NCBI GenBank assembly: GCA_965209225.1
Contig: OZ242379.1
Span: 1,421,289-1,485,288, forward strand
Reading direction: 5' to 3'
Origin: Thermodesulfobacteriota bacterium
GTDB taxonomy: Bacteria; Desulfobacterota_D; UBA1144; Nemesobacterales; Nemesobacteraceae
DNA: 64,000 bases
Shown: positions 24,074 through 37,875 of the stretch, piece by piece
How the letters are laid out: every line of letters begins with the position of its first letter
Position numbering within the stretch: the first letter of the stretch is position 1
Made by a program: the position numbers and the translations under genes
Notes under the pieces: model-generated
Seen by the model: the letters and a program-made list of their open reading frames with translations, nothing else
Told to the model about the DNA's origin: nothing
Database searches by the model: none

Positions 24074-24187
24074 GCGATTTCCCCGCCCCGGCTTATCCGC
24101 CCCCCCCCCCACGGGATTTCCCCTTTTCCCCGCGCGGCATTTGTAACGAAATTGAGGTTTGCCGAGGTTGCACTATAATAAATATGT

Positions 24188-24446: not shown

Positions 24447-25418
24447 TTAAAAAAGATCACTGGCTTTTTCCCATGATTGCTGGTATAACAGTAATCATGA
24501 ACAAATCACCTGAACAACTCATTTCCCCCAAGCTCCGCTTGCGGGACGTCATTGTAAGACCAGCCAGTCCCGATGAATTCCCCTAGTGGGACAGGCTCAT
24601 GAACGAACATCACTATCTCGGCTTCAAAAAATTTGTAGGCAACCACATTCGTTACGTAGCCGAGCATAAAGGAACCTGGCTCGCTATCGCCGGATGGCAT
24701 ACAGCCGCCTTCATGTGCGCCCCCCGAGACCGATGGATAGGGTGGAACCGGGACTGCCAGTTCAAAAACCTCCACCTTATAGCGAATAACACGCGGTTTC
24801 TGGTGCTGGCCCAACAAGGGGGTATCCCCAACCTGGCCTCTTTTTTCATGGGAGCCATGACAAGACGCATAAGCGATGACTGGACGGAACGCTTCGGACA
24901 TGAACTGCTCCTTGCCGAGAGCTTCGTAGACCCCGGGCGCTTTTGTGGAGCTATGTACAAAGCGTCTAACTGGATATGCGCGGGCGCTACCAGGGGATTC
25001 CCGCAGCAACGGACGTTACAGCAAGCATAACGGGAATCCGAAGAAGCTCTATCTTTATGAGCTGCGCAAAAAATCAAGAAAGATGCTTCGCAATGCCGAC
25101 ACGCTGGGAGAGCGCTACAGCGCGAAAGGGATGCGCACCCGCCGCTCCGACAAGGAGTTGAGGTCTCTTTATGAGGAGCTTGAGTGTGTGGGGGATTTCC
25201 GCAGAGCTCAGGCATTTTACGCTCAACAGGGAAGAGGCTTTCGAGGCTGTGCTCTCGGGTTAGGGCTATCCCAAGTTCGTCAGTTGTTGTGCAAATGAGT
25301 CTCTGGTTGGCCATAAAAGGTACGTAATTCCAGCCCAAATCCCGTTTTTTGCTACCGTACGGGATGATTTTGACTGATTTTCAGTCATGAAAGGGTTTGT
25401 TGTTGGGAATTCAGGCTA
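24447..25418 (+). mobile_element. IS-like element remnant encoding a frameshifted DUF4338-like protein
   Basis: The left part duplicates, inverted, window positions 1-123. The right end is ttgttgttgggaattcaggcta. The ORFs at 24599-25030 and 24945-25298 are in different frames. Confidence 0.55.
24599..25298 (+). pseudogene. Frameshifted DUF4338-like gene
   Basis: The N-terminal 143-aa ORF and the 117-aa continuation ORF are offset by one frame and overlap at 24945-25030. Confidence 0.45.
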
Positions 25419-25895
25419 GGGGGGGGGGGATATCGGACTTTATGGCGGAGATAACGGTGGCCAACTGGCGCATGGGTTCGGGGAGGTCGTCGAGGTTTTC
25501 CTTGAGCGTGGGGAACAGTTCCTGTTGCAAACAAGCGTGGAACCTGTATAATGCAGGAGTGCGTGGGACATGGTGTTTCTCCTTCCATATTATGGATTTT
25601 GGATAACCTGTAGTATGCCGTGAAGGAGGCACCATGTCTTTATTTTGCCCCTTCATTTCAAAGAAATTCACTCGCCTTAAGAATTTTGCAAGAGGTTCTA
25701 TAGTAAATAAAATCTGACAGATTCAAGCAAAAAAGAACCTTTCTTATGTATCTAACCTACTTTCCGCACAAAAAATATTCTTGTTTTCCCGATTTTTTGC
25801 TCTGTAACTGACTCATATTCCTGACAGTTTTTTTACGCCTTTCTACCCTTTTTTTCTCTCAACTCCTTTTTGCCAGGAATTTTCCGTACAAAACC

Positions 25896-26273
25896 CTATT
25901 TCAACCAGTCTTTCTTCTCGGTCGAACTGCTTATTACCTCCGCCTCAAGCTCGTCAATTTCCGCCTGAATCGCTTTCTGAACTGCCCTGAGCTGCTGGCG
26001 GTACTTGCGGAACCTTCTTCTGTTCTCCGTCATGCTTTTAACCCACTGCACTTCTCCCTTCGCAACAGCTCTGGACTTTGAACTGGAACCCTGGAAAAAA
26101 ACTATACGATCCAACGGATGACCATCCCCCCTCGCACACCAGCAGTTGGGCTTCCCGCACTTGCGATAAACAGTGCTGAACGAACCCCTGATCATCCCTC
26201 TGATTCCGACAATGGAGTTCAGCAGTTCAGCGTGTCTTAGTCCCAGCTGTTCAATCTGTTTTATTCTTGACAT
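25896..26273 (-). CDS. Small zinc-ribbon (CGKPNCWC) hypothetical protein, divergent from the IS1634 transposase
   Basis: 125-aa basic protein with a CxxC pair. Its position suggests it is an IS accessory gene. Confidence 0.35.
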   Translation of the reverse strand: MSRIKQIEQLGLRHAELLNSIVGIRGMIRGSFSTVYRKCGKPNCWCARGDGHPLDRIVFFQGSSSKSRAVAKGEVQWVKSMTENRRRFRKYRQQLRAVQKAIQAEIDELEAEVISSSTEKKDWLK

Positions 26274-26306: not shown

Positions 26307-27986
26307 ATGTCAACCACTCTCAAACGAACGCGTATCGGTGAAATCCCCCTGCTTCAGCATGTGGTTCGACGACTCGGGCTAGACCGCCTGCTGCGCTCTT
26401 ACATTCCGCCCCACGGCAATGAAACCTATCCAGCGGCCGACACTCTTTTGCTTCTGGTGTTCAACATCGCAAGCGGTCGCTGGCCCCTGTATGATCTCCG
26501 ACGCTGGACCACGGACATTGACGGTCGGTTACTGGGACGTAAAAGCGCTTTGCCCGAGGAGGTGTTTAACGATGATCGTTACGCAAGGGCTCTTGACAAG
26601 CTCTTTTCTGTTGACAGGGCCTCTTTTCTTACAGACTGCACGCTTGGAGTGGTTCGCTCAACGGGTCTTGAACTCTCACAGCTTCACAATGATTCCACCA
26701 CGGTTAAAACAACGGGGAAGATGCCGCAGAGAACCCGAAGTGGTCTTTCCTTTGAATACGGACACAGCAAGGACCATCGTCCTGATCTCAGGCAGATAGT
26801 GTTCTCCCTCACGATTTCCGCGGACGGGGCAGTGCCTGTTCACTGCAAGACCTGGCCCGGCAACCGCACGGACGACACCACTCACATTGAGACCTGGACA
26901 GTCCTGCGCGACATGGCGGGGAGAAGTGATTTTCTGTATGTGGCTGACTGCAAGCTGTGCACGGAGAAGCAGCTTTCATTCATAGTGGGCAACGGGGGCA
27001 GGTGCGTGACGATAATTCCGAAGACACGGGGAGAGGTGAAGAAGTTCAAAGAATCCATGAGGGAGAATCCCAGGGGCAAGGAACGTATTATGCGCAGGCC
27101 TGTGTCTGGTCGGGATGGGAGTTTCGAGACTTTCTACAGGATCAGGGGAAGTTATGAGACAGACAAGGGTGGTTACGGGGTTCACTGGATATATTCAACG
27201 GAGAAGAGAAGACAGGACAGCGAACAGAGGGAGCGGCGGATGGATGAGGCTTCCCTGGCTCTTGCTGACATAAGCGGTCGGTTAAACAAGCGCAGGCTCA
27301 AGACGAAAGAGCAGATTCAGGAAAGGGTAGAGAAGATACTGAAGAAACATGATGTCAAGGCTTTTTACGACGTTACGATAGAGCAGTACGAAGAGGTTAC
27401 GCGGAAGCAGAGAGGAAGAGGACGTCCTGGGAGGGGGACAGCGTACAGGGAGGAATCAAAGACGGTGTATTCGCTTAGCTGGAGGAGGGACAGGGAAGCT
27501 CTTGAGAGGGAGAAGAATGTTGACGGCTTGTTTCCGTTGCTGTGTACGGACAGAGAGATGGGGGCGAAGGAGGCTCTTTTGGCGTACAAGTATCAGCCGA
27601 GGCTTGAGAAGAGGTTTGAGCAGTTAAAGAGCGTGCATCTTGCGGCTCCCACATTGTTCAAGAAGACAAGCAGGGTGGAGGCCGTGATGTTTCTGTTTTT
27701 CATGGCTTTGATAATACAGGCGGTAATAGAGAGGGAGGTGCGCAACTCCATGAAGGCCAGGGAGATAGACGCCATAGCGGTTTATCCTGAGCATCGTCTT
27801 GCGTATCATCCTACGACTGCGAAGATAATTGAACGGTTCCATGACACGAGCGTGTATCGTGTTATGCGAGGGGATGAGGTTGAGACGGAGTACCGCGACG
27901 ATCTCTCAGCTGTTCAGAAGGAAGTGCTTGAGCTGCTGGGGATGACGGAACAGGACTACTGGGACAGTCTTGTTCCTCAGCAGTAG
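26307..27986 (+). CDS. IS1634-family DDE transposase
   Basis: 559 aa with a DUF4277-like N-terminus and the HSKDHRPDL motif characteristic of IS1634/IS1549. Confidence 0.75.
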   Translation: MSTTLKRTRIGEIPLLQHVVRRLGLDRLLRSYIPPHGNETYPAADTLLLLVFNIASGRWPLYDLRRWTTDIDGRLLGRKSALPEEVFNDDRYARALDKLFSVDRASFLTDCTLGVVRSTGLELSQLHNDSTTVKTTGKMPQRTRSGLSFEYGHSKDHRPDLRQIVFSLTISADGAVPVHCKTWPGNRTDDTTHIETWTVLRDMAGRSDFLYVADCKLCTEKQLSFIVGNGGRCVTIIPKTRGEVKKFKESMRENPRGKERIMRRPVSGRDGSFETFYRIRGSYETDKGGYGVHWIYSTEKRRQDSEQRERRMDEASLALADISGRLNKRRLKTKEQIQERVEKILKKHDVKAFYDVTIEQYEEVTRKQRGRGRPGRGTAYREESKTVYSLSWRRDREALEREKNVDGLFPLLCTDREMGAKEALLAYKYQPRLEKRFEQLKSVHLAAPTLFKKTSRVEAVMFLFFMALIIQAVIEREVRNSMKAREIDAIAVYPEHRLAYHPTTAKIIERFHDTSVYRVMRGDEVETEYRDDLSAVQKEVLELLGMTEQDYWDSLVPQQ

Positions 27987-28187
27987 GAATGATGATTCCG
28001 GAATGCGGAAATTCGGAAAAACAAGGAATTTTTTTCCGCGGAAAATAGGATCTAAGTTATTTCATTAGGGGATTTTGTTGTATACTAGTCAAGGCTGGAA
28101 AAACGGAATAAATGTTTCCTTTGACCAAAATGAAGAGGTGTGGCGTTCCTTACATGTCCAAGAACTCTTGTTCTGGTCGGATTTATT

Positions 28188-29471
28188 ATGAGCAGGCGTC
28201 ATGAGACAGGACTTCATCGCAAGAATGAATATCCTATAGTCTATCTGGACTATGCTGCCACAACTCCTGCTGACCAATCCGTCATTGATATCATAATCCA
28301 ACATCTGGGATTTGAAGGTGTCTTTGGCAATCCTTCTTCGCAATCTCATCAATTCGGAAGAATGGCAGAAGAAGCAGTGGAAATAGCAAGATCTCACTTA
28401 GCTAAGTTGATCAACGCAGACCCTGTAGAGATTGTTTGGACATCTGGAGCAACAGAATCCATTAATTTAGCCATAAAAGGGGTGGTTTACGGACGTTCTG
28501 GCCGAGGTGCCCATATTGTAACTTCAAGCCTTGAGCACAAAGCGGTTCTTGATTCTTGTGCTTATTTGGCCAGTAAAAGGTTCGAAATCACCTATGTCGC
28601 CCCGGATCAGCATGGGATAATTTCACCAGAAAAAGTCGGTGAAGCACTTAGAGATGATACCGTCCTTGTATCCCTTATGCATGTGAACAACGAGGTAGGT
28701 ACCATCACGGATATTGACGCAATAGGTCAAATTACAAGGGATAGAGGGGTCCCATTCCATGTAGACGCAGCACAAAGTTCTGCGCGATTACCCATTGATG
28801 TAAGCGAGATACCAGTGGATTTTATTTCGCTTAGCGGTCATAAGATGTACGGTCCCAAGGGTGTCGGAGCACTATATATCAGAAAGCGATCAGGTATAAG
28901 CATAGAACCTCAAACGCACGGCGGTGGGCAGGAGTCTGGCATACGTCCAGGAACTCTCCCCACACACCAATTGGTCGGCATGGGAGAAGCGGCTCGATTG
29001 GCAAAACAACGTCTATACCAAGATGCAAAAACTATTGCTGCCCTTGATAGATATTTGTTGGATAGCTTAGCGGATATTGAGTCGGCTATATTGAACGGCA
29101 ATCAGACACACAGGGTGCCTGGGATTTTCAACATAAGCTTCGCTCATGTCGAAAACGAATCTCTTATGATGTCTCTTAAAGATGTTGCAATCTCATCCGG
29201 GTCGGCTTGTACTTCATCTCGTGTTGAGCCCTCCCATGTCTTGCTAGGGCTGGGAGTGTCAGAAGATGCTGCAAATTGCTCGATTCGCTTCAGTATTGGC
29301 AGACAAACCACTAGGGATGAAATTGATTTTGCCGCAATGCGTGTGAAGAAATCCGTTGAGTTGCTGCGTGAATTATCGCCTGAATGGCGGTCTCCTAATT
29401 CCGAGGAGCAACTTCAGAACGACAATAAAGCTAGGTCGAACATTACTGTAACACAGGAAAATGCCGTATGA
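28188..29471 (+). CDS. Cysteine desulfurase (class V aminotransferase; IscS/NifS/DndA/SspA-like)
   Basis: YLDYAATTP start, a PLP-lysine SGHKMYGPKG and an SGSACTS active-site Cys loop. The stop overlaps the next gene's start (ATGA). Confidence 0.8.
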   Translation: MSRRHETGLHRKNEYPIVYLDYAATTPADQSVIDIIIQHLGFEGVFGNPSSQSHQFGRMAEEAVEIARSHLAKLINADPVEIVWTSGATESINLAIKGVVYGRSGRGAHIVTSSLEHKAVLDSCAYLASKRFEITYVAPDQHGIISPEKVGEALRDDTVLVSLMHVNNEVGTITDIDAIGQITRDRGVPFHVDAAQSSARLPIDVSEIPVDFISLSGHKMYGPKGVGALYIRKRSGISIEPQTHGGGQESGIRPGTLPTHQLVGMGEAARLAKQRLYQDAKTIAALDRYLLDSLADIESAILNGNQTHRVPGIFNISFAHVENESLMMSLKDVAISSGSACTSSRVEPSHVLLGLGVSEDAANCSIRFSIGRQTTRDEIDFAAMRVKKSVELLRELSPEWRSPNSEEQLQNDNKARSNITVTQENAV

Positions 29472-30673
29472 ATAAGGAGACTGTACTAGCAAAAGTTGTC
29501 TCATTTGACAGTGATGAAAACATTGTCCGAGCAGTTAAATGCTTCAATACCGCCATTGATGTTATACGGAAAGAATATATGCGCAGGCATAATGACCCGT
29601 GGGTTGTGGCATATTCTGGCGGAAAAGACTCAACACTGTTACTGCAAATGACTTGGGAAGTGCTGGCATCACTACCAAGTTCAGCAAGGCACCGTAAAGT
29701 CTATGTAGTTGGTAACGACACTCTTGTGGAGTCGCCCTTAGTCATTCGCCATATGCGAAGCTCAATGAAAAAAATTGCCGAAGCAGCAACAGCTAGTAAT
29801 TTGCCGATAGAAACAGAGATTACTACACCTAACGTTGATCAGACATTCTGGGTCAATGTTATTGGACGTGGTTACATTCCGCCCACGCGCAACTTCCGCT
29901 GGTGTACCGACCGCATGAAAATCATTCCCACAAATCGGTTGCTGGAAAGGTTAACTCGCTCTCACAAGCGTGCCGTGTTATTGGTAGGAACGCGAAAGAG
30001 CGAGTCCACAAATCGTCGGCGCAACATGAAGAAACACGGAGCTTCGGGAACAACCATGAACCGCCACAGCAGCATACCTGCATGTCGTATGTTTTCCCCA
30101 ATCGCTGAATTTAAAGACGAGGATGTATGGATCACTCTGATACAACGAAAACCTCCTTGGGGAGGTACGCATCGGGACTTGATTACGCTTTATCGCAATG
30201 CTGGGGGAGGGGAATGTCCTCTGGTGCTGACAAAGGAAGATGCTCCTTCCTGCGGGACAACATCTCCAAGATTCGGCTGCTGGACATGCACTGTTGTAAA
30301 CAAAGACCGCAGCCTTCGGGGATTGATTGATTCAGGCCATGATGACACTGATTTTTTTGAGGCTCTTTACGACTTTCGCGAATGGCTCGTGGAAATGCGC
30401 GAGAACAACTCGAACCGGCAGAGTGTTAGGCGAAATGGAATATCCAAGACGCGTGCTGACGGAACTGTTGTACTGGGACCGTTCACCCTTGACGTACGTA
30501 AGTTGATTCTCGACCGGTTAAAGGAGCTTGAGCAAAGTATCGGGGAGCATCTAATCACAGAATCTGAGCTTGATATAATCCATGATATCTGGCGCAGGGA
30601 CCGAGTGGTCCAGTCATGTCGAGACGAGTTGCACGAAGCGGTTTCTTCCCATATGGAGGAGGAACTTGCATGA
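29468..30673 (+). CDS. PAPS-reductase-family PP-loop ATP pyrophosphatase, DndC/SspD-like
   Basis: SGGKDS PP-loop, an FRWCTDRMKI motif, and a C-terminal Cys cluster (CPLV...SCG...FGCWTCT) consistent with an Fe-S site. Confidence 0.7.
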   Translation: MNKETVLAKVVSFDSDENIVRAVKCFNTAIDVIRKEYMRRHNDPWVVAYSGGKDSTLLLQMTWEVLASLPSSARHRKVYVVGNDTLVESPLVIRHMRSSMKKIAEAATASNLPIETEITTPNVDQTFWVNVIGRGYIPPTRNFRWCTDRMKIIPTNRLLERLTRSHKRAVLLVGTRKSESTNRRRNMKKHGASGTTMNRHSSIPACRMFSPIAEFKDEDVWITLIQRKPPWGGTHRDLITLYRNAGGGECPLVLTKEDAPSCGTTSPRFGCWTCTVVNKDRSLRGLIDSGHDDTDFFEALYDFREWLVEMRENNSNRQSVRRNGISKTRADGTVVLGPFTLDVRKLILDRLKELEQSIGEHLITESELDIIHDIWRRDRVVQSCRDELHEAVSSHMEEELA

Positions 30674-32451
30674 CTACTCGGAAAGCATTGATTAAAGCGG
30701 ACTCTCTGCTGTTTTCAAACCTGCTCAGGGAAGGCAAGTTCTCGGTTCCATGGCATCAGCGTTATTACGACTGGAACCCAGGGCACGTTCAGGAACTCCT
30801 TTTTGATATTGAAGAAGCTCTAAAGGAAAAACGGGACTGTTATTTTCTGGGAACCGTGATTTTTGTGGAGAAAGAACCTGAACACTGGGAGATCAACGAC
30901 GGACAGCAGCGCATGATAACGTTTTCACTGATCTGTGCGTCGCTTTGCCGCAGGTTTGCGCACGAGACATCGGATTCTCAGCGCGAAGGAAGGGCGTTAC
31001 GCATTCTATTTGACTTGGATGAAAACACTCCATGTTCACTGGCCGCCGCTCGAAACTATACTCCTCGAATTTCCCCGCAGGAAGATGATGCAGTCTGGTA
31101 CCGGCAGATGATTCAGGGAAACGATATTGGAACTAACGGCACTATCACGGCCGCATGGAAAATTCTCGATGAATTTATCCTGTCGCAAAGCACTGAAGAA
31201 TCCGAGAAATATTTTGATTTCCTCGTCCGAAAGCTTGAAATAGCTCGTCTGCGGGTGCCAACGCAAGTTGACCCAAACGCCGTGTACGAGACTATCAACT
31301 GCAGGGGTAAAATACTTGATGACCTAGATCTAATCCGAAACCACATCTACTCGCATTTTAATAGTGAAGAAAATCATGAAAGAAAAAAGTCAGTGCATGC
31401 GCATCTGGAAAGAATTCGCACTAGGTTGTCTGCCAGGAGAACCTCTGAATATATGCGGTGTCACCTGCAATGTGTGTTTGGATTTCTTCGCAGGGACAGC
31501 TTCTATCGCGATGTACGTAAAGCAATCCGCAATCAAGCACAAGGGAAAAAAAGAAGCCAGGAAGACTATGTGCTTGAACTCGCGGAAAAAGTTGCCGACC
31601 CTAAAAGTCTGTGCCTCTTCTCAGAAGTGATAGTTTCATCCAATCCCGACCCTAAAACCATTCAGGCGTTTAATACTGACTCCGGAAAGGGAAATTTGCG
31701 CAGGAATCTTTCCGTCTTCCTGTGGGAACTGCGCGGATACACGGTAACTCAGCCATTAGTGTTCGCTTTGTTGACGGTTTATTTGCGCGAAACGGACGGT
31801 CGGCGAAGAAAACGGATTGCCAAAAAAGTGCATGAAAATTTGAGTCGGTTGGCAGCATTTGTTCTCAGAACTGCTTTTGTCGCCCCGAAGTTCGAGCCTT
31901 CTCATTTCGAAGCTAGATTCTCCGAGTTTGCGAAAAAAATAATGCAGGACGAGAAAATTCCCGATAAAGAATTTGCTGAGTTTCTGCTGGACTGCGACCG
32001 CGATTACTACAAAGTACTGGATGATTCTAAGTTTGAGGAAGAACTTTATGAAGCACAGATGACGGGTGACAAAAAGATAAAACGATTTCTTTTCGGCATT
32101 AACAGCGATCAGCAGACAGGTTCTCAGGTTTTTAATGACAGTGAATTTTCAGTAGAACACATACTTCCAAAATCAGATAGGCATTGGGACAACTGGAAAG
32201 GTTTCGGGGAAGAGGACCCGAAGGAATGGGTCAGCAGAATCGGAAACCTGACGCTTCTGGGAAGAACCGACAACAAACCGGGGACAAAGTTCAACGGAAG
32301 CTTTAAAAAGAAGAAAGAAATCTATGCGGAAAGTGCTCTGGTAATCACCAGCCAACTGTCTCAGTGGAACGACTGGACTCCTCAAAATATTAAAAAAAGG
32401 CAACGGTACATGGCTAGCCGTGCCGTTGAGGTCTGGAGGTTTATACGATAA
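30670..32451 (+). CDS. DUF262 (DGQQR, ParB/Srx-like NTPase) + DUF1524 (His-Me finger) protein, SspE/GmrSD-like
   Basis: The N-terminus carries a DGQQR motif. The C-terminus carries an EHILPKS...N...N HNH-like motif. The start overlaps the upstream stop (ATGA). Confidence 0.7.
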   Translation: MTTRKALIKADSLLFSNLLREGKFSVPWHQRYYDWNPGHVQELLFDIEEALKEKRDCYFLGTVIFVEKEPEHWEINDGQQRMITFSLICASLCRRFAHETSDSQREGRALRILFDLDENTPCSLAAARNYTPRISPQEDDAVWYRQMIQGNDIGTNGTITAAWKILDEFILSQSTEESEKYFDFLVRKLEIARLRVPTQVDPNAVYETINCRGKILDDLDLIRNHIYSHFNSEENHERKKSVHAHLERIRTRLSARRTSEYMRCHLQCVFGFLRRDSFYRDVRKAIRNQAQGKKRSQEDYVLELAEKVADPKSLCLFSEVIVSSNPDPKTIQAFNTDSGKGNLRRNLSVFLWELRGYTVTQPLVFALLTVYLRETDGRRRKRIAKKVHENLSRLAAFVLRTAFVAPKFEPSHFEARFSEFAKKIMQDEKIPDKEFAEFLLDCDRDYYKVLDDSKFEEELYEAQMTGDKKIKRFLFGINSDQQTGSQVFNDSEFSVEHILPKSDRHWDNWKGFGEEDPKEWVSRIGNLTLLGRTDNKPGTKFNGSFKKKKEIYAESALVITSQLSQWNDWTPQNIKKRQRYMASRAVEVWRFIR

Positions 32452-32468
32452 CGGTTGACAGTTTCCAG

Positions 32469-33851
32469 TTGCGCCGCCTTGCGGAGGAAAAGCTTCGTGT
32501 TCCCGCACTTTTGCACGATTACCAGTGGGAGGGAGTGGCTTTCTTATATCAGTCGCCTTCGGGACTTCTTGCAGATGAAATGGGGCTCGGAAAAACGGTG
32601 CAGACTGCAGTCGCCTTGGGACTGCTTATGCACGCGCAAAACGATGTCAATCGCACAATAATAGTGGCACCCGCTTCCCTGACAACCAACTGGATAGAAG
32701 AACTGGAAAAATGGGCACCGTCGCTTACGGTACGGAGAGTGCAAGGCGACGCACGAAACAGGGAAGCTTTTTACCTGCTTCCGATTCCTGTTATCGTGGC
32801 CTCCTACGAGCAGATCCGCCTTGACGGGTTGGATAGAATTCCCTCAAACGCTTTCGACCTCGTCATACTTGATGAAGCTCAGCGGATTAAGAACAAGGCA
32901 TCTACCACTTCCTTGGCGTGCAGACTTCTCCCAAGAAAGCGCGCATGGGCCTTGTCCGCCACGCCCCTTGAGAACGACGAGGCCGATATTGAATCAATAC
33001 TCGGGTTCCTCGACCCATCATTCGGACAATCTCCTCCTAGATTGGTCTTGAACAAGAAGTTGAGATCAATGATGCTGCGTAGAAAGAAATCCGACGTTCG
33101 AGGGGAACTCCCTCCGGTAATCATACAAGATATTAAAATCGACTTATCATTACAGCAAAGAAACAAATATGAAGATATCTGGTTTAGCAGGACCAATGCT
33201 ATCGGTGACGGCACATCTTCCGGAAATGTTGTCTCTGTATTACTCGGACTTATTACCCGCCTGAAAACTGTGTGCAATTTTGACGAATCAACAGATACCT
33301 CGTCAAAGTGGGATGTTCTCCGGGATCTACTCGATCAGGCCGGGAATTCAGCCCGCATTCTGGTGTTCTCGCAGTTCGTCGAAACCTTGCGCTGGATTTC
33401 CAAACGCCTGGAAATTCCACACAGTCTCCTGACGGGTTCAATGCCCTTGACTCGGAGGCAGAAATCCATAAACGAATTCAAAAGAAATCCGGCTCCTCGC
33501 GTACTGCTGGTTTCGCTTCGTGCGGGCGGAGTGGGATTGAATCTCGGAGAGGCTACCCATGTAGTTCTTTTTGACAGATGGTGGAATCCCGCTGTGGAAG
33601 TTCAGGCGATCTTCCGGGCTCATCGTTTTGAACGCAATGATCCGTTGCATGTTATCAGATTCCTGGCCACCGACACCATTGAGGACCGGATAGCGGAAAT
33701 ACTTGATCGGAAAGAGGACTTGTTTGATGAAGTAATAGAGTCCGTTGAAACCAAGTCTCGCAGTTTTTCACTGCAGGAAATGATGCGCATACTTGAACTC
33801 ACAGAAAATGATCTCTTTTCGGCTAGGGAAGGAAAAAGAACAAAATCGTAA
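32469..33851 (+). CDS. Minimal SNF2-family DNA-dependent ATPase
   Basis: GLGKT Walker A, DEAQ box, LSATPLEN, and a helicase-C domain with RAGGVGLNL and FDRWWNP. There are no accessory domains. Confidence 0.75.
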   Translation: MRRLAEEKLRVPALLHDYQWEGVAFLYQSPSGLLADEMGLGKTVQTAVALGLLMHAQNDVNRTIIVAPASLTTNWIEELEKWAPSLTVRRVQGDARNREAFYLLPIPVIVASYEQIRLDGLDRIPSNAFDLVILDEAQRIKNKASTTSLACRLLPRKRAWALSATPLENDEADIESILGFLDPSFGQSPPRLVLNKKLRSMMLRRKKSDVRGELPPVIIQDIKIDLSLQQRNKYEDIWFSRTNAIGDGTSSGNVVSVLLGLITRLKTVCNFDESTDTSSKWDVLRDLLDQAGNSARILVFSQFVETLRWISKRLEIPHSLLTGSMPLTRRQKSINEFKRNPAPRVLLVSLRAGGVGLNLGEATHVVLFDRWWNPAVEVQAIFRAHRFERNDPLHVIRFLATDTIEDRIAEILDRKEDLFDEVIESVETKSRSFSLQEMMRILELTENDLFSAREGKRTKS

Positions 33852-33962
33852 GGCATTTTCGGAGAGTTCAACATTTGGGATCGGGTCTAGAAAGTGGCTT
33901 TTTTCTCGTAAATCTGCTAACTTATCCAACTAGCTTAAATCGCTTAAAAAAGGGGGTATAAA

Positions 33963-34790
33963 ATGCCAAAAATAATTGAATATAGAGAACTGCCTCTAGA
34001 TGATCTCGTGATAGGAAAGGGACAGGTTCGAACGTTTGAACCAGGGAAGGACATTGAAGAGCTAGCTAACAGTATCAGGGTGCAGGGGCTGTTGCAACCG
34101 ATAGTTGTGTGCGAATCGAAAGAACGACCCGAAAAATGGGAAATCCTTACGGGGCAGAGGCGTTATCTAGCACACAAGCACCTTAAAGAGCAAAGCATAA
34201 CGGCTGCGATCCTAGATGGACATGTTGATGAGCGTACGGCCAAGGCGATTTCTATTACCGAAAACCTGATTCGCCGCAAGCTTTCAGGCTCAGAACTTAT
34301 TGACGGAGTAACGTACTTGTACAACATGTACGGAACGCAAAAAGCTGTTGTTGAAGCTACAGGTCTTCCTGCGTCGGCCGTTCGGGACTACGTGAAATAC
34401 CCTCGGCTTATAGATCCCCTGAAGAAACTTGTTGATGATGGCACCGTTGATATTCATGGAGCTTTAAAAGCTCAGGACGCATCCATTAATGAAGATGGAA
34501 AACCGGACCCGGAAACCGCGGTAAAATTGGCTAAGGAAATGGTTCCCATGTCCGGCATTCAGCGCAAAAAGGTTGTTCAAGCGCGCAAAAAGGATCCCGA
34601 AAAACCAATTGATGACGTGATTGAGGATGCGAAAGGAGCATCCAAGGCAACTCAGGTTGTCGCGACGATTACGCAGAAAACACACACTGCTCTGCAGAAA
34701 TTCGCTAATAACGAAGGAATAAACCAAGATGAAGCCGCTGCTACGCTCATAGAACGTGCTTTGACCAGCGAAGGGCTTCTGGACGAATAA
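33963..34790 (+). CDS. ParB/Srx-domain nuclease-like protein
   Basis: ParB N-domain with a GQRRYLA box and a following HTH-like region. Confidence 0.65.
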   Translation: MPKIIEYRELPLDDLVIGKGQVRTFEPGKDIEELANSIRVQGLLQPIVVCESKERPEKWEILTGQRRYLAHKHLKEQSITAAILDGHVDERTAKAISITENLIRRKLSGSELIDGVTYLYNMYGTQKAVVEATGLPASAVRDYVKYPRLIDPLKKLVDDGTVDIHGALKAQDASINEDGKPDPETAVKLAKEMVPMSGIQRKKVVQARKKDPEKPIDDVIEDAKGASKATQVVATITQKTHTALQKFANNEGINQDEAAATLIERALTSEGLLDE

Positions 34791-35513
34791 ATGCTAGCTG
34801 ATCTCAGTGCTCTCGAGCTCGGGCGTCTCCGAATGTCGGTAGGATACGGTACTCATAAAAAAGGGCGGCCGCTCTCACCAGTTGAAGTCGGAAAATTGAT
34901 TCGCCAAGCTAAAGAAGCGGGCATTTCAACGGAGGATTGCGCCAAAGCAATTAATCTTGACAAAACAAGTATCGGTCGCTTCCTGCGAATTCTTGATCTG
35001 CCTGAAGACGTTCAGCATCTGGTTTCTTGGGGTGCCCAGAAGGATTCTATTGGCTTTTCGGTGGCCGCCCAGTTGGCAAGGTTTGAAGATACAGAAGATC
35101 AGCATGCTGTTATTGAGACAATTTTAACTGATGGGCTTAGCAGGAAAGAAATTGAGCAGGTCTTACAACTCAAGAGTCGATCCGGCAGGAAAATTGACGA
35201 GTGCTTGAAAGAAGTTCTGGGAATGCGTCCTGTGATTGAGAAAAGGCATGTATTCATCGGGATGATAGATGACCAGGATTTGGATGTGACGCTTTCGGGT
35301 CTGACACAAGCACAAAGGGACTCAATACTGCAATCCAGCATCCAAGCACTTGGCTTAGCTGAGGTGTCTGGCCGACTTGGAAAAAACATCCTCACTTTGG
35401 TCGGTTCTCATAGCCTCGGGACATATATCAAAAACATTGGGGCAGACAACCTTGAGGCACAGCTTATAGCCCAGATTCAAAAAGGTATCAACAATGAACG
35501 ACTCCGCGATTGA
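34791..35513 (+). CDS. ParB-like HTH-domain protein lacking the N-terminal catalytic box
   Basis: A ParB HTH-like region (LSPVEVGKLIRQAKEAGISTEDCAKAINLDKTSIGRFLRI) is present. The gene starts 1 nt after the upstream stop. Confidence 0.5.
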   Translation: MLADLSALELGRLRMSVGYGTHKKGRPLSPVEVGKLIRQAKEAGISTEDCAKAINLDKTSIGRFLRILDLPEDVQHLVSWGAQKDSIGFSVAAQLARFEDTEDQHAVIETILTDGLSRKEIEQVLQLKSRSGRKIDECLKEVLGMRPVIEKRHVFIGMIDDQDLDVTLSGLTQAQRDSILQSSIQALGLAEVSGRLGKNILTLVGSHSLGTYIKNIGADNLEAQLIAQIQKGINNERLRD

Positions 35514-36528
35514 TGTTTTCGAGAGCGGGGCTGTCCGTCTGGGCACAAATGTGGTTTGTGACGGTTTCGTGGAAGGATATGACTTCCGTGTCCAGACACA
35601 TGTTCACGATGATCACATGGGGGACTTTGATACAAGTAAAGGCAGACAGGATTTCTTCATGAGCGTGGAGACGTTTAGTCTTCTCAACGCTTTTCTCAAT
35701 GCAGAAATCCCCTACCGATCTAACTTTCACAAAATTCTGCGCGGGGCTGAGTACGAACTTCGTGATGGTTCAAAGCTGACTCTTCTTCCGTCGAACCATA
35801 TGCTCGGTTCATGTCAAGTATCCTTGCAGTTGCTAAATGGCCGACGAGTAGGTTATTCGGGGGATTTCGGCTGGCCTCTCGAAAAAATCATCCAGGTCGA
35901 TGAACTCGTGGTGGATAGCACCTACGGAAGTCCGAATAGCGTACGCGGCTATACACAAGCTGAGGCCGAGGAATGTCTTTTGGAGCTTGTATGCAAACGT
36001 TTGAGGTATGGTTCCGTTCATATCTACGCCCACCGAGGAACAGTTGAACGGGTTCTGCATATCATCGAAGGTAACGTGGGAGTCCCAATTCTTGCCAGTG
36101 ATCGACTTATTCAAGAAGTAGATGTTTATCAGAATTGCGGAATCGCACTGGGAGAAGTTGAGAGCCTTAGTTCAGATGAAGGAGTATCAGCATCCAAACG
36201 AAGGGCTTACGTTCGATTATATTCAAAAGGCGACGGTTTCGGAAACGAACCCATTACTGACACAAGTATCAAATGCAGTGCCTATATGGCCACACGTTTT
36301 GCGAGTAGTCCGTTAATAACCCTCAGTGACAACTCTTACAGCGTGGCATTATCAAATCATGCGGATTTTCGCGAGACGCTTGAATATGTTGAGGCAACGG
36401 GAGCTGAGATAGTAGTCACCGATAATACACGTAACCATGGCATTGAACTGGCCAACGCAATTAACGAGCGTTTATCCGGGATCAAGGCAAGACCATCAAC
36501 AAATAATCCCACACCTCGCTGGCGCTAA
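35494..36528 (+). CDS. Metallo-beta-lactamase-fold hydrolase (probable nuclease)
   Basis: HVHDDH (HxHxDH) motif, downstream His/Asp ligands (NHML, SNHADF) and a beta-CASP-like C-terminal half. Confidence 0.65.
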   Translation: MNDSAIDVFESGAVRLGTNVVCDGFVEGYDFRVQTHVHDDHMGDFDTSKGRQDFFMSVETFSLLNAFLNAEIPYRSNFHKILRGAEYELRDGSKLTLLPSNHMLGSCQVSLQLLNGRRVGYSGDFGWPLEKIIQVDELVVDSTYGSPNSVRGYTQAEAEECLLELVCKRLRYGSVHIYAHRGTVERVLHIIEGNVGVPILASDRLIQEVDVYQNCGIALGEVESLSSDEGVSASKRRAYVRLYSKGDGFGNEPITDTSIKCSAYMATRFASSPLITLSDNSYSVALSNHADFRETLEYVEATGAEIVVTDNTRNHGIELANAINERLSGIKARPSTNNPTPRWR

Positions 36529-36692
36529 CCGAAATTCATCCAATTAATCTAAGGTTAGACGCGCTCGCTCGGGTCTGTGGGGGAAAGGGAGCGGAAACGC
36601 CCCTTTCTACCCAGTCATAAATATTGTATGCGATATTTGACATATATGTAGCGACAATAATATGCTATAGTATCATCTTTGGGAAGTAATTA

Positions 36693-36959: not shown

Positions 36960-37475
36960 ATGGAAAGCACTAAAACAGTACAAGTAATAGATACGTTTCA
37001 GAACAAGTCTTTTCCACTTTCTTTTTTACAAGAGAAGGTGGTGGGTAGCATTGACTTAGAAAGAAACTACATTTCACTTGACAGCTTGACGAGGAATTAC
37101 ACTGTACTTAAAGAACCTTCCTATTATGAGCCTCCCCGGAACACTTTTCCCGAAGAATATATTGAGTCTTCGTTTACTTTGCTTATGGAAAGCTGGTGCG
37201 AAGAAAAGAAATATATGTCTTTTCTGTCAGATATAGTTACGTGTCCTTCGTATCAAAAAATAATTGAGATGGGAGAATTAGCCCTTTCATTAATATTAGT
37301 TCAACTTAGAAAAGAAGGAGACGACCCAAACCACTGGTTTACCGCTCTTGAAGCTATAACAGGTCATAACCCAGTTCCAGAAAGCGCTTATGGAAATATG
37401 GTAAAGATGGCAGAAACATGGCTTTTCTGGGCCGAAAAAAATAATGTTTCCCGGCTTTCCGAATCTCAATTCTGA
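36960..37475 (+). CDS. Hypothetical protein (possible immunity/partner protein)
   Basis: 171 aa; overlaps the downstream ORF by 32 nt. Confidence 0.35.
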   Translation: MESTKTVQVIDTFQNKSFPLSFLQEKVVGSIDLERNYISLDSLTRNYTVLKEPSYYEPPRNTFPEEYIESSFTLLMESWCEEKKYMSFLSDIVTCPSYQKIIEMGELALSLILVQLRKEGDDPNHWFTALEAITGHNPVPESAYGNMVKMAETWLFWAEKNNVSRLSESQF

Positions 37476-37875
37476 AAATTGTCGCATAACTAGTCCACCA
37501 ACTAATCGCTACAACTGTATAGCTTGGGCGGCTGGTTGTAGTACCAAGTGGTGGTGCCCTTATGGCTATTGGCCTTCCGGAGTTCCCAGAAAAATAACTC
37601 TGTCTGCACTTTCAGAAGTATTTAGAACTCTTGGATACGAAGAATGCGAAGATGGTTTCTTAGAATCTGGATATGAAAAAGTGGCATTGTTCGCTAGTTC
37701 TAATGCTGATAAAGACCTGTTACCTACACACGCTGCAAGACAACTAAGGAATGGGTGGTGGACAAGCAAATTCGGAGATGATATTGAGCATAGGAATCCA
37801 GAAGACCTGAATGGTTCAGCATATGGAACTGTAATTTGTTTTATGCGACGTGCAAAAGAAGGTGGCTTGAAATAA
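37444..37875 (+). CDS. Hypothetical protein with a papain-like Cys...His arrangement (YNCIAWAAG ... PTHAARQ)
   Basis: 143 aa. The Cys/His spacing is reminiscent of NlpC/CHAP-type or other thiol hydrolases. Speculative. Confidence 0.3.
   Translation: MFPGFPNLNSENCRITSPPTNRYNCIAWAAGCSTKWWCPYGYWPSGVPRKITLSALSEVFRTLGYEECEDGFLESGYEKVALFASSNADKDLLPTHAARQLRNGWWTSKFGDDIEHRNPEDLNGSAYGTVICFMRRAKEGGLK

Follow-up and report, generated by a model that had tools for sequence, protein, structure and literature searches.

Results

Gene content of the locus

The window, that is the whole 64-kb stretch of DNA that was analysed, contains a cassette of 8.45 kb with the gene order dndA, short dndC, GmrSD-like, SNF2, ParB-N, HTH and MBL, of which the last four make up the 3' half.

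28112..36557, + strand: the entire cassette from dndA to MBL, horizontally transferred; blastn homology with three MAGs (L003, L004, L006) is limited to these coordinates
28140..29471, + strand: DndA/SspA-type cysteine desulfurase (sulfur donor); Aminotran_5 4.7e-82, PADLOC SspA 510 bits, DndA 504 bits
29468..30673, + strand: short DndC, a PP-loop sulfurtransferase of 401 aa; TIGR03183 DndC 349 bits
30670..32451, + strand: GmrSD-like DUF262+DUF1524 NTPase/HNH nuclease of SspE-like architecture; GmrSD_N 2.6e-20, GmrSD_C 3.3e-24
32469..33851, + strand: minimal SWI2/SNF2 ATPase core, 460 aa, without a fused nuclease; SNF2-rel_dom and Helicase_C (Pfam)
33963..34790, + strand: ParB/Noc-type N-domain and HTH protein (ParB-N) with a possible C-terminal RHH-like tail; ParB_N 1e-14
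34791..35513, + strand: ParB DNA-binding-domain-only protein (HTH) with an extra C-terminal alpha/beta domain; HTH_ParB only, 1.7e-10
35494..36528, + strand: compact beta-CASP metallo-beta-lactamase nuclease (MBL), 344 aa; Lactamase_B_2 3.9e-06

The first-pass annotation described the last four genes as co-oriented and tightly spaced, and their open reading frames, domains and junctions were all confirmed. Read from the sequence, a gap of 111 nt separates the SNF2 stop at 33851 from the parB ATG at 33963, and the TAA of ParB-N (34788-34790) is directly followed by the HTH ATG at 34791 in a TAAATG junction; the two ParB-like genes, given earlier as 1 nt apart, do adjoin directly, but the measured gap is 0 nt. 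The reported 20-nt overlap was found again, the MBL ATG at 35494 lying within the HTH gene, which closes with a TGA at 35513, and we propose that MBL may be translationally coupled to the HTH gene. The dndC stop overlaps the start of the GmrSD-like gene in an ATGA, with a GGAGGAGG ribosome-binding site at this start; the mechanical ORF begins at 30616, but ATG 30670 is likelier. No terminator-like site was found on the + strand between the cassette genes, the sole + strand match being inside the GmrSD-like gene. The cassette sits in a low-GC island with an IS1634 transposase on one side and glyA on the other; the island shows no notable repeats. Neither ParA nor replication genes are present among the annotated neighbours, and the plasmid and viral collections searched for the module gave no matches.

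The modification genes and the GmrSD-like protein

The short DndC lies above the TIGR03183 cut-off of 290 bits and keeps SGGKDS, FRWCT and the cysteines of CPLV..PSCG..RFGCWTCT. Compared with canonical DndC it lacks ~100 aa at the C-terminus, which the DndCs that work with DndD/E do have. DndB, the ParB-like regulator with a DGQHR motif, is missing from the window, and tblastn with the ABC ATPase DndD and the RHH protein DndE of two other loci (L065, L070) found neither of them in the 64 kb (best E 0.008 over 50 aa). The GmrSD-like protein is above the cut-offs for both GmrSD_N and GmrSD_C, and the DGQQR and EHILP motifs are found in its translation. In PADLOC it matches HEC-06 and Orf5, and SspE weakly over the N-terminal ~100 aa only; its membership of SspE/GmrSD is therefore to be read at the family level.

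The four proteins of the 3' half

The SNF2 protein has all the features of a SWI2/SNF2 ATPase, i.e. N-lobe, helicase C-lobe, Walker A, DExx and motif VI, and matches SNF2-rel_dom (E 1.7e-46) and Helicase_C (E 3.2e-21) as well as the structures of SMARCA5 (2e-49) and SsoRad54 (1z63, 1e-47). GLGKT, DEAQ and the motif VI region (AHRF) are kept across 60 homologues, and the best PADLOC match is DpdE with 212 bits. The gene is cleanly missing from one related locus (L016) in which the remaining cassette is kept, and another (L051), where other cassette genes look disrupted too, has no full-length match, so the motor is not always needed.

ParB-N has the GxRR and ENLxR boxes of a ParB/Noc N-domain, followed by an HTH DNA-binding domain. 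It matches Noc (7ol9, 1.5e-13; residues 6-159 aligned), and it carries its own HTH, the alignment to Noc running through residue 180. The conservation of G64-Q65-R66-R67, E100-N101-L102 and R104 is 98% or higher among 63 sequences, and the box is GQRR rather than GERR across the whole family. In canonical ParB the Glu of the GERR box contributes to CTP hydrolysis, and since ParB-N has a Gln in its place, a canonical CTPase cycle is uncertain. The matches that point to the RHH-like tail are weak (RepB-RCR_reg E 0.049; RepA regulator 7.5e-4). PADLOC gave no DndB match for ParB-N, whose motif is TGQRR and not the DGQHR of DndB, whereas the real DndB of L065 scores 454 bits. In its N-domain boxes, HTH and overall alignment to Noc and ParB it resembles the CTP-dependent DNA clamps of the ParB/Noc/KorB kind, and the HTH-only protein recalls KorA-KorB, where there is a second small DNA-binding partner. 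It differs from them in the GQRR box and in its coupling with an SNF2 motor as well as a nuclease, and the traits of a ParABS system (adjacent ParA, parS context, replicon) were not found at the cassette.

The second ParB-like gene has an HTH_ParB domain only, as was noted at the outset. The idea that the pair is a split ParB was rejected: ParB-N has its own HTH, there is no detectable similarity between the two proteins, they are separate ORFs in the loci inspected, and homologues of both are found in 67 of 72 related loci.

The Lactamase_B_2 score of MBL is exactly at Pfam's cut-off. All the features of a beta-CASP nuclease are present (HxHxDH, H, D, the acidic motif A, the His of motif B and the insertion fold), with HxHxDH, H102, D124, D141 and H289 intact, and the fold matches CPSF73 and RNase J. 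An invariant Asp, D310, aligns with the motif C His ('VHG') of the archaeal CPSF PH1404. With its 344 aa the protein has no KH, RNase J C-terminal or other extra domain, and it scores 23 bits in NCBIfam aCPSF1, where the cut-off is 580. In NCBIfam the best match, with an E-value of 1.2e-15 and far under the family cut-off, is the ligase-associated DNA damage response exonuclease.

Distribution and transfer

Co-occurrence was analysed in 72 related loci that encode a full MBL homologue and represent at least 12 phyla. HTH is found alongside MBL in 69 of them, ParB-N in 68, DndC in 64 and SNF2 in 60, and the complete four-gene module is also present in 60. The linkage of the four genes is far beyond chance, which bears out the view of them as a conserved unit and not as scattered genes. 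DndC lies within 10 kb of 58 of the 60 complete modules, in most cases in one co-oriented, overlapping operon, and the same gene order recurs in ~60 loci of many phyla and in four more metagenome contigs. A frame of four genes captures a real module but omits dndA, dndC and the GmrSD-like gene, obligate partners that define the system to which it belongs.

The hosts seem for the most part to be MAGs of marine-sponge symbionts. The nucleotide identity of the cassette across phyla is 77-84%, e.g. 84% to a Dadabacteria (L003), 78% to a Rhodothermaceae (L004) and 78% to another Thermodesulfobacteriota locus (L006) by blastn. Identity varies as a mosaic along the cassette, its breakpoints falling on the borders between genes, and SNF2-ParB-HTH acts as one recombination unit. 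That the four genes are a separable sub-module is upheld by three observations. Precisely where SNF2 begins, identity to a Dadabacteria MAG rises from 65-83% to 93-98%; in L029, L035 and L045 the dndA-dndC-GmrSD part is either inverted or shifted with respect to the four genes; and identity correlations within DndA, DndC and GmrSD (0.76-0.92) and within SNF2, HTH and MBL (0.63-0.78) are slightly higher than those across the two sets (0.57-0.69).

The module is linked to two modification architectures, the sponge type ([dndA]-short dndC-GmrSD) and canonical dndB/C/D/E/A; in some other loci Mrr_cat nucleases are its partners. Nearly all loci of the sponge clade lack DndD, DndE and DndB within 10 kb, with weak DndB/DndE matches only in L028 and L036, and tblastn found DndD in the loci of a distant clade only and a single, weak DndE match outside it (L036). 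In this distant soil/freshwater clade, whose MBL (L059-L070) is 45-52% identical to that of the window, the same four genes directly adjoin complete canonical dnd(B)CDE(A) clusters; DndD scores 584-755 bits and DndB 454 bits in PADLOC, and DndE is also matched. Four more contigs have the module beside canonical dnd, and in L086 the genes are co-oriented as dndC-D-E-SNF2-ParB-HTH-MBL.

Comparison with known systems

We found no description of the module in PADLOC or the searchable literature. The PADLOC scan comprised ten proteins of the cassette and its flanks, with the best 25 of 42 matches for SNF2 and the best 25 for the GmrSD-like protein. The module is distinct from Pbe, DndFGH, Ssp and Dpd.

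Phosphorothioate (PT) systems pair with varied restriction modules, viz. dndFGH/sspFGH, sspE and pbeABCD (PMC12707154), and the true coupling of such PT-associated 'restriction' modules has been questioned (PMC10853773). Like the cassette, the DndABCDE-DndFGH systems have homologues of DndA and DndC, and beside their modification genes, too, lies an ATP-dependent module of several genes; in the distant clade the four-gene module occupies the usual dndFGH position. The window has DndC but lacks DndB, DndD and DndE, its motor is SNF2 and not the HerA/FtsK-type ATPase of DndH (PMC10853773), and its nuclease is a beta-CASP protein where DndFGH has an REase; no DndF, DndG or DndH is among the PADLOC matches listed for the ten proteins (best 25 for SNF2 and the GmrSD-like protein).

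SspABCD-SspE likewise has a cysteine desulfurase, a PAPS-reductase-type enzyme, a DUF262+DUF1524 protein of the SspE architecture and an NTPase domain of the ParB superfamily that carries a GQxR motif. Such NTPase domains act in PT systems in DndB (PMC10853773) and in the DUF262 domain of SspE (PMC12914056, PMC12707154). The cassette is without SspB (DUF4007) and SspC, and SspD is weak in PADLOC (E 6e-06 over 100 aa); Ssp, for its part, has no SNF2, ParB/HTH pair or MBL.

DndCDEA-PbeABCD is similar in having four genes beside dnd, a helicase-type ATPase and a nuclease-type domain, and both have been proposed as PT-dependent exclusion systems. The components are all described as unlike the module proteins: PbeA is a PLD nuclease with an SF2 helicase, PbeB has 66 aa, PbeC is a CxC ABC ATPase and PbeD a DndE-like protein of 152 aa (PMC6459918, PMC10853773). 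PADLOC includes Pbe models, PbeC having matched DndD proteins, and none is among the matches listed for the four proteins (best 25 of 42 for SNF2).

The Dpd island is also modification-based, with a ParB-like NTPase (DpdB) and an SNF2-type helicase (DpdE). Only the SNF2 ATPase core matches, against the C-terminal part of DpdE; the cassette has no DpdA transglycosylase and no DpdB match for ParB-N, and its chemistry is that of sulfur (DndA/DndC) where Dpd uses preQ0. TdpABC, the hypercompact PT system of thermophiles, shares a DndC-type enzyme without DndD/DndE and a separate ATPase-plus-nuclease restriction pair. An et al. in 2025 are said to have described TdpA as a hexameric ring ATPase and TdpB as a nuclease. 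The Tdp comparison is one of names of listed PDB matches only, and no chain named Tdp is among those listed for ParB-N, HTH, MBL and the short DndC or among the 60 of 82 listed for SNF2.

Discussion

Our best explanation, to which we give a probability of about 0.55, is that the four genes form one conserved module that would serve as the DNA-tracking and DNA-cutting, i.e. restriction-side, partner of a DndC-based PT modification. DndA and the short DndC would mark the host DNA with PT. ParB-N, a putative ParB/Noc-type NTP-gated clamp with a family-specific GQRR box, would load on DNA with its HTH-only paralogue, the minimal SNF2 ATPase would shift or remodel this complex along duplex DNA, and DNA without the PT mark would be cut by the beta-CASP nuclease. 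The GmrSD-like DUF262+HNH protein, with the domain architecture of SspE, may be a second effector or a sensor. Since a complete Dnd modification set needs no extra ATPase or DNA binder, the module of the distant clade would fill the slot of a restriction partner, and this argues for a PT-linked restriction or scanning arm in the place held elsewhere by dndFGH or pbeABCD. It would most likely be a hitherto undescribed arm for cutting DNA within an anti-virus system. The first-pass annotation had proposed a DNA-scanning restriction machine, and this reading is favoured by the distant clade, where complete canonical dndBCDE(A) clusters stand next to these four genes; the split-ParB part of the annotation fails. 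The clade of the window has neither DndD, DndE nor the DndC C-terminal domain, so the module may in addition provide DndC with the ATPase and DNA-recognition functions that it needs.

In that clade, which is without DndD/SspC and DndE/SspB, a purely modification-side role of SNF2, ParB and HTH would fit equally well, and the GmrSD-like protein is already a plausible restriction nuclease, so that a second one is not required by the model. The four proteins might then be modification cofactors, with SNF2 (ATPase), ParB-N/HTH (DNA recognition) and MBL (nicking) replacing DndD/DndE/DndB or SspC/SspB, and with the GmrSD-like protein, which has the domain architecture of SspE, as sole restriction effector, as SspE is for SspABCD. 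The absence of DndD, DndE and DndB from the window and nearly all sponge-clade loci, the truncation of the short DndC, and the statement of a review that PT installation requires, besides a PAPS reductase, an ATPase and a component that recognises DNA (PMC12707154) all agree with this. We still regard it as rather unlikely: in the distant clade these functions are already covered by dndBCDE(A), tdpC by itself suffices for PT synthesis (PMC12914056) and the short DndC need not have partners, and L016 has kept the other cassette genes with SNF2 missing. The two roles could also coexist, as in bifunctional type I or III R-M enzymes. An independent defence system, near dnd genes merely through island clustering, is improbable. 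Unrelated systems do mix in defence islands, the ParB-HTH-MBL trio of L071 has a Pbe-like PLD-helicase and an ABC ATPase as neighbours but lacks a DndC within 10 kb, and the module of L068 is flanked by transposases, but the proximity to DndC in 58 of 60 intact modules, mostly in one operon, the link kept with two unrelated dnd architectures in many phyla, and the transfer of the whole seven-gene block speak against it.

The NCBIfam match of MBL could point to repair, where an SNM1/Apollo-like beta-CASP exonuclease and the SNF2 motor would process the nicks or oxidative damage to which PT-modified DNA is prone. Neither a ligase nor any other repair gene belongs to the cassette, the module is mobile and resides in islands, and its partners, a GmrSD-type nuclease and elsewhere Mrr_cat nucleases, are typical of defence and not of repair, which makes this quite improbable. 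Least probable are housekeeping or mobile-element functions, with ParB-N in partition and MBL in RNA processing of the RNase J/CPSF type. ParB-N is above the TIGR00180 domain cut-off (72 vs 58 bits) and MBL shares the fold of CPSF73 and RNase J, but there are no ParA or replication genes nearby, no plasmid or viral matches, and the genes are part of the low-GC island that has the IS1634 transposase and glyA on its two sides. As a housekeeping RNase J/aCPSF1, MBL was rejected, having neither the extra domains, the motif C His nor a core-genome location; it is a compact beta-CASP protein inside a transferred cassette, and the module stands in this respect as well.

The restriction-side reading can be extended, tentatively and with the odds against it, to one machine for both modification and restriction, which would be a fifth, undescribed route of PT immunity. 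The truncated DndC, without DndD/DndE, would dock on the GQRR ParB-type clamp driven by the SNF2 motor, and the same complex, together with the beta-CASP DNase, would read the PT mark and destroy unmarked DNA. If this were true, such a route would be spreading among unrelated marine-sponge symbionts in the form of a shuffling cassette of 8.5 kb.

Results

Gene layout and proteins

The four open reading frames reported in the first-pass annotation, for an SNF2 protein, a ParB-N protein, an HTH-only ParB-like protein and an MBL protein, are real and present as it described them. Directly upstream of the SNF2 gene are three further genes in the same orientation.

Genes of the cassette (28112-36557, all on the + strand)
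28140-29471, +, DndA/SspA-type cysteine desulfurase
29468-30673, +, DndC sulfurtransferase (TIGR03183, 349 bits, cut-off 290)
3' of dndC, likely start ATG 30670, +, GmrSD-like DUF262+DUF1524 protein
32469-33851, +, SNF2 protein, 460 aa (Pfam SNF2-rel_dom 1.7e-46, Helicase_C 3.2e-21)
33963-34790, +, ParB-N protein, 275 aa (Pfam ParB_N 1e-14)
34791-35513, +, HTH-only ParB-like protein, 240 aa (Pfam HTH_ParB 1.7e-10; ParB_N absent)
35494-36528, +, MBL protein, 344 aa (Pfam Lactamase_B_2 3.9e-06, at cut-off)

Reading the junctions from the sequence, there is a gap of 111 nt on the 3' side of the SNF2 gene, the TAA of the ParB-N gene is followed at once by the ATG of the HTH-only gene, and the HTH and MBL genes overlap by 20 nt. 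The GmrSD-like ORF has its mechanical start at 30616 and then overlaps dndC by 58 nt; the ATG at 30670 seems the more likely start, with the ribosome-binding site GGAGGAGG upstream and an ATGA overlap with the dndC stop. When the island was scanned for promoters, terminators and repeats, no signal exceeded that expected from shuffled sequence, and no repeat resembling parS was seen.

The SNF2 protein is a bare SWI2/SNF2 core, with SMARCA5 and SsoRad54 as its best PDB matches; its GLGKT, DEAQ and motif VI region are conserved, and no nuclease is fused to it. The alignment of ParB-N to Noc and ParB spans the N-domain and the HTH (7ol9, 1.5e-13). Among 63 sequences its residues G64-Q65-R66-R67, E100-N101-L102 and R104 show conservation of 98% or more, and the Gln that replaces the Glu of GERR is reminiscent of DGQHR of DndB and DGQQR of DUF262. 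A marginal RHH-type match in the Pfam scan weakly indicates an RHH-like C-terminal tail. The HTH-only protein carries an additional alpha/beta domain, and the Pfam scan of its C-terminal tail gave no match. Its residues 1-30 (34791-34880), with the motif LELGRLRMSVGYGTHKKGRPLSP, are almost invariant among 29 homologues and have the lowest model confidence (pLDDT 68-76); this N-terminal motif may be a partner-binding peptide. That the two ParB-like genes might be a split ParB was an earlier suggestion which we reject, because ParB-N already carries its own HTH; nor is there any detectable similarity between the two proteins. In the MBL protein H36, H38, D40, H41, H102, D124, D141 and H289 are invariant, and KH or other accessory domains were not found. 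Where archaeal CPSF has its motif C His, the aligned residue is an invariant Asp, which we take to place the protein nearer to the DNA-acting SNM1/Artemis group of beta-CASP proteins.

Conservation and co-occurrence

More than 1,100 relatives of the MBL protein were found at E <= 0.001, the top 120 being 62-100% identical. A genome scan gave 80 loci, of which 72 had a full MBL homologue (at least 40% identity); by tblastn with all window proteins, the HTH-only gene was present in 69 of these 72, ParB-N in 68, DndC in 64, SNF2 in 60, GmrSD in 57 and DndA in 52. DndC was no more than 10 kb away in 58 of the 60 loci carrying the complete four-gene module, and the order was almost always dndA-dndC-GmrSD-SNF2-ParB-HTH-MBL. 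Those loci without partner genes that were inspected were apparently degraded, or cut by IS elements or contig ends. The hosts belong to Dadabacteria, Rhodothermales, Latescibacterota, Binatia, Acidobacteriota, Gemmatimonadota, Thermodesulfobacteriota, Dehalococcoidia, and Alpha- and Gammaproteobacteria, and from lineage names and isolate codes we read them as mostly MAGs from marine-sponge or coral holobionts.

One apparently intact cassette is without SNF2 (L016, 5423-11029; dndC-GmrSD-ParB-HTH-MBL, GmrSD and parB being 125 nt apart), and two further loci have the ParB-HTH-MBL trio with SNF2 missing (L071, 3071-11014; L070, 269-11038). The trio comes after a PLD+SF2 helicase and an AAA_23 ABC ATPase in L071, which is Pbe-like, and in L070, from Mycobacterium sp. 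MFM001, after dndC-D-E, a methyltransferase-like gene, a 158-aa ORF and an 816-aa ABC ATPase. It follows that the motor partner can be exchanged.

Island setting and transfer

The cassette lies in a chromosomal island. The GC content drops across 24-38 kb of the window, an IS1634-family transposase (26307-27986, 250 bits) is found directly upstream, and downstream are the housekeeping genes glyA, nrdR, tatD and pdxA. A plasmid or phage origin of the module was rejected, since neither a plasmid tblastn nor a viral-contig scan found copies. Accompanying the transposase is a divergent DUF6788 gene (25896-26273, - strand), and transposases also flank the cassette in three related loci (L001, L002 and L068). 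An imperfect inverted repeat (24098-24127 / 25405-25427) ends in C11/G9 homopolymer runs and encloses about 1.3 kb with unannotated ORFs only (24506-25338, - strand); this segment is perhaps what is left of a small mobile element. Just beyond the cassette, at 36960-37875, a 171-aa gene of unknown function and a DUF7689 gene (143 aa) overlap by 32 nt in the stretch of lowest GC (0.42), near a promoter-like site at 36637-36666. They were rejected as cassette members, since none of the related loci has a counterpart and both genes lie outside the homology block; possibly they form a two-gene element of their own.

In blastn against MAGs of three other phyla, homology was limited to 28112-36557, with 77-84% nucleotide identity and flanks without homology, so that what was transferred is the cassette of seven genes and 8.45 kb. 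Windowed identity to the Dadabacteria locus (L003) stays at 65-83% until about 32.5 kb, rises to 93-98% over SNF2-ParB-HTH and falls to 83-87% over most of MBL. For the Rhodothermales loci most values over dndA-dndC are 85-93%, and identity is about 70% once the GmrSD gene begins. Comparison with four loci (L003, L004, L005 and L006) places the breakpoints near 30.4-30.7 kb, 32.5 kb and 35.5 kb, all of them gene boundaries. Such mosaic identity without flanking homology indicates recent cross-phylum transfer and shuffling of modules. In two loci (L029 and L035) the dndA-dndC-GmrSD block runs opposite to SNF2-ParB-HTH-MBL, and in a third (L045) it is rearranged. Spearman correlations of identities are 0.76-0.92 within {DndA, DndC, GmrSD}, 0.63-0.78 within {SNF2, HTH, MBL} and 0.57-0.69 between the sets. 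The inversions, the mosaic identity and the correlations give direct support to the earlier idea that the four genes are a sub-module.

Two dnd settings

In the window's clade (L001-L058) DndC is 380-401 aa long against 483-514 aa for canonical DndC; it is without the C-terminal ~100 residues, and the PP-loop and the cysteine cluster are kept. DndD, DndE and DndB were not found nearby in this clade, apart from weak DndB/DndE matches in L028 and L036 (DndE-like in L036). In a distant clade (L059-L070), from soil, farmland and freshwater MAGs and Mycobacterium sp. MFM001, the same four genes adjoin complete canonical dnd clusters, in which PADLOC finds DndD (584-755 bits), DndE and DndB (454 bits). 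The MBL there is 45-52% identical to that of the window. With the MBL of one such locus (L065) as query, four more contigs with the same arrangement were found.

Gene orders in the four further contigs
L083, dndC-D-E-A, then SNF2-ParB-HTH-MBL-Mrr_cat
L084, dndB-C-D-E divergent from dndA-SNF2-ParB-HTH-MBL
L085, dndB-SNF2-ParB-HTH-MBL, dndBCDE nearby
L086, dndC-D-E-SNF2-ParB-HTH-MBL, single direction

Mrr_cat nucleases 3' of MBL and an extra DndB copy flanking the module (L083 11002-12483; L086 12836-13663; L085 5782-7035; L086 11576-12784) hold the place that the GmrSD-like gene has in the window's clade.

Discussion

Reviews of DNA phosphorothioate (PT) modification list three restriction branches only, dndFGH/sspFGH, sspE and pbeABCD, and four modification routes, dnd, ssp, tdp and brxPCZL (PMC12707154, PMC12914056). 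Full-text literature searches found no description of the SNF2+ParB+HTH+MBL combination. A 2026 paper, which gives dnd, ssp, tdp and brxPCZL as the established PT systems, goes no further than a mention of dndC neighbourhoods, still uncharacterised, that contain a P-loop NTPase and DUF262 (PMC12914056), and a 2024 survey of Dnd neighbourhoods has HKD, HNH, REase, URI, HEPN and PIN nucleases, without MBL and without the SNF2+ParB module (PMC10853773). Among the PADLOC (2023) matches listed for the four proteins (for SNF2 the best 25 of 42) there is no Dnd, Pbe or Ssp, only generic SNF2 cores (DpdE, ZorD, DrmD) and a marginal PD-Lambda-5_A match to ParB-N. That the module is PbeABCD was rejected on these results and on the published composition, which differs in every protein (PMC6459918, PMC10853773).

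The first-pass annotation suggested that the four genes could form a DNA-scanning restriction machine, and this part of its proposal is favoured by their position beside complete canonical dnd clusters. A full Dnd set needs no extra ATPase or DNA binder, and the module stands where dndFGH or pbeABCD lie elsewhere, so that a PT-linked arm for scanning and cutting is the most economical explanation; we put its probability, with dual use allowed, at roughly 0.55. In such an arm ParB-N would be an NTP-gated DNA clamp of ParB type with the HTH protein as partner, SNF2 would be the translocase for scanning, and the beta-CASP MBL would be the DNase that cuts. A purely modifying cofactor has the reduced clade in its favour, as PT installation is held to need ATPase and DNA-recognition functions (PMC12707154), and the complete dnd clusters against it, and we find it rather unlikely. 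It is possible that the short DndC of the window's clade, without its tail and without DndD/E, acts alone as tdpC does (PMC12914056), or that the module there also gives the ATPase and DNA-recognition functions for installation. Smaller weight still is given to an independent system, to a repair module and to housekeeping roles. With the PT-linked restriction arm as the preferred reading, the system is best classed as a PT-based defence in which the modification core is reduced and four genes make up a so far undescribed partner module; our confidence in this assignment, and in restriction rather than modification as the role, is moderate.

A further widespread partner module would extend the PT catalogue of three restriction branches and four modification routes. 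With its ParB-type clamp, SNF2 motor and beta-CASP nuclease, it would carry ParB/CTP-clamp biology into immunity based on DNA modification, and a short DndC without DndD/E is a compact test case for the choice of PT target sites. With 77-84% nucleotide identity across phyla and shuffling at gene boundaries, the cassette is a clear example of recent exchange of defence genes, which appears to take place within sponge microbiomes. A sponge metagenome study found PT genes enriched yet 'not functionally complete' (PMC5099237), which fits a cassette lacking DndD/E, and exchange of the cassette may account for that earlier result.
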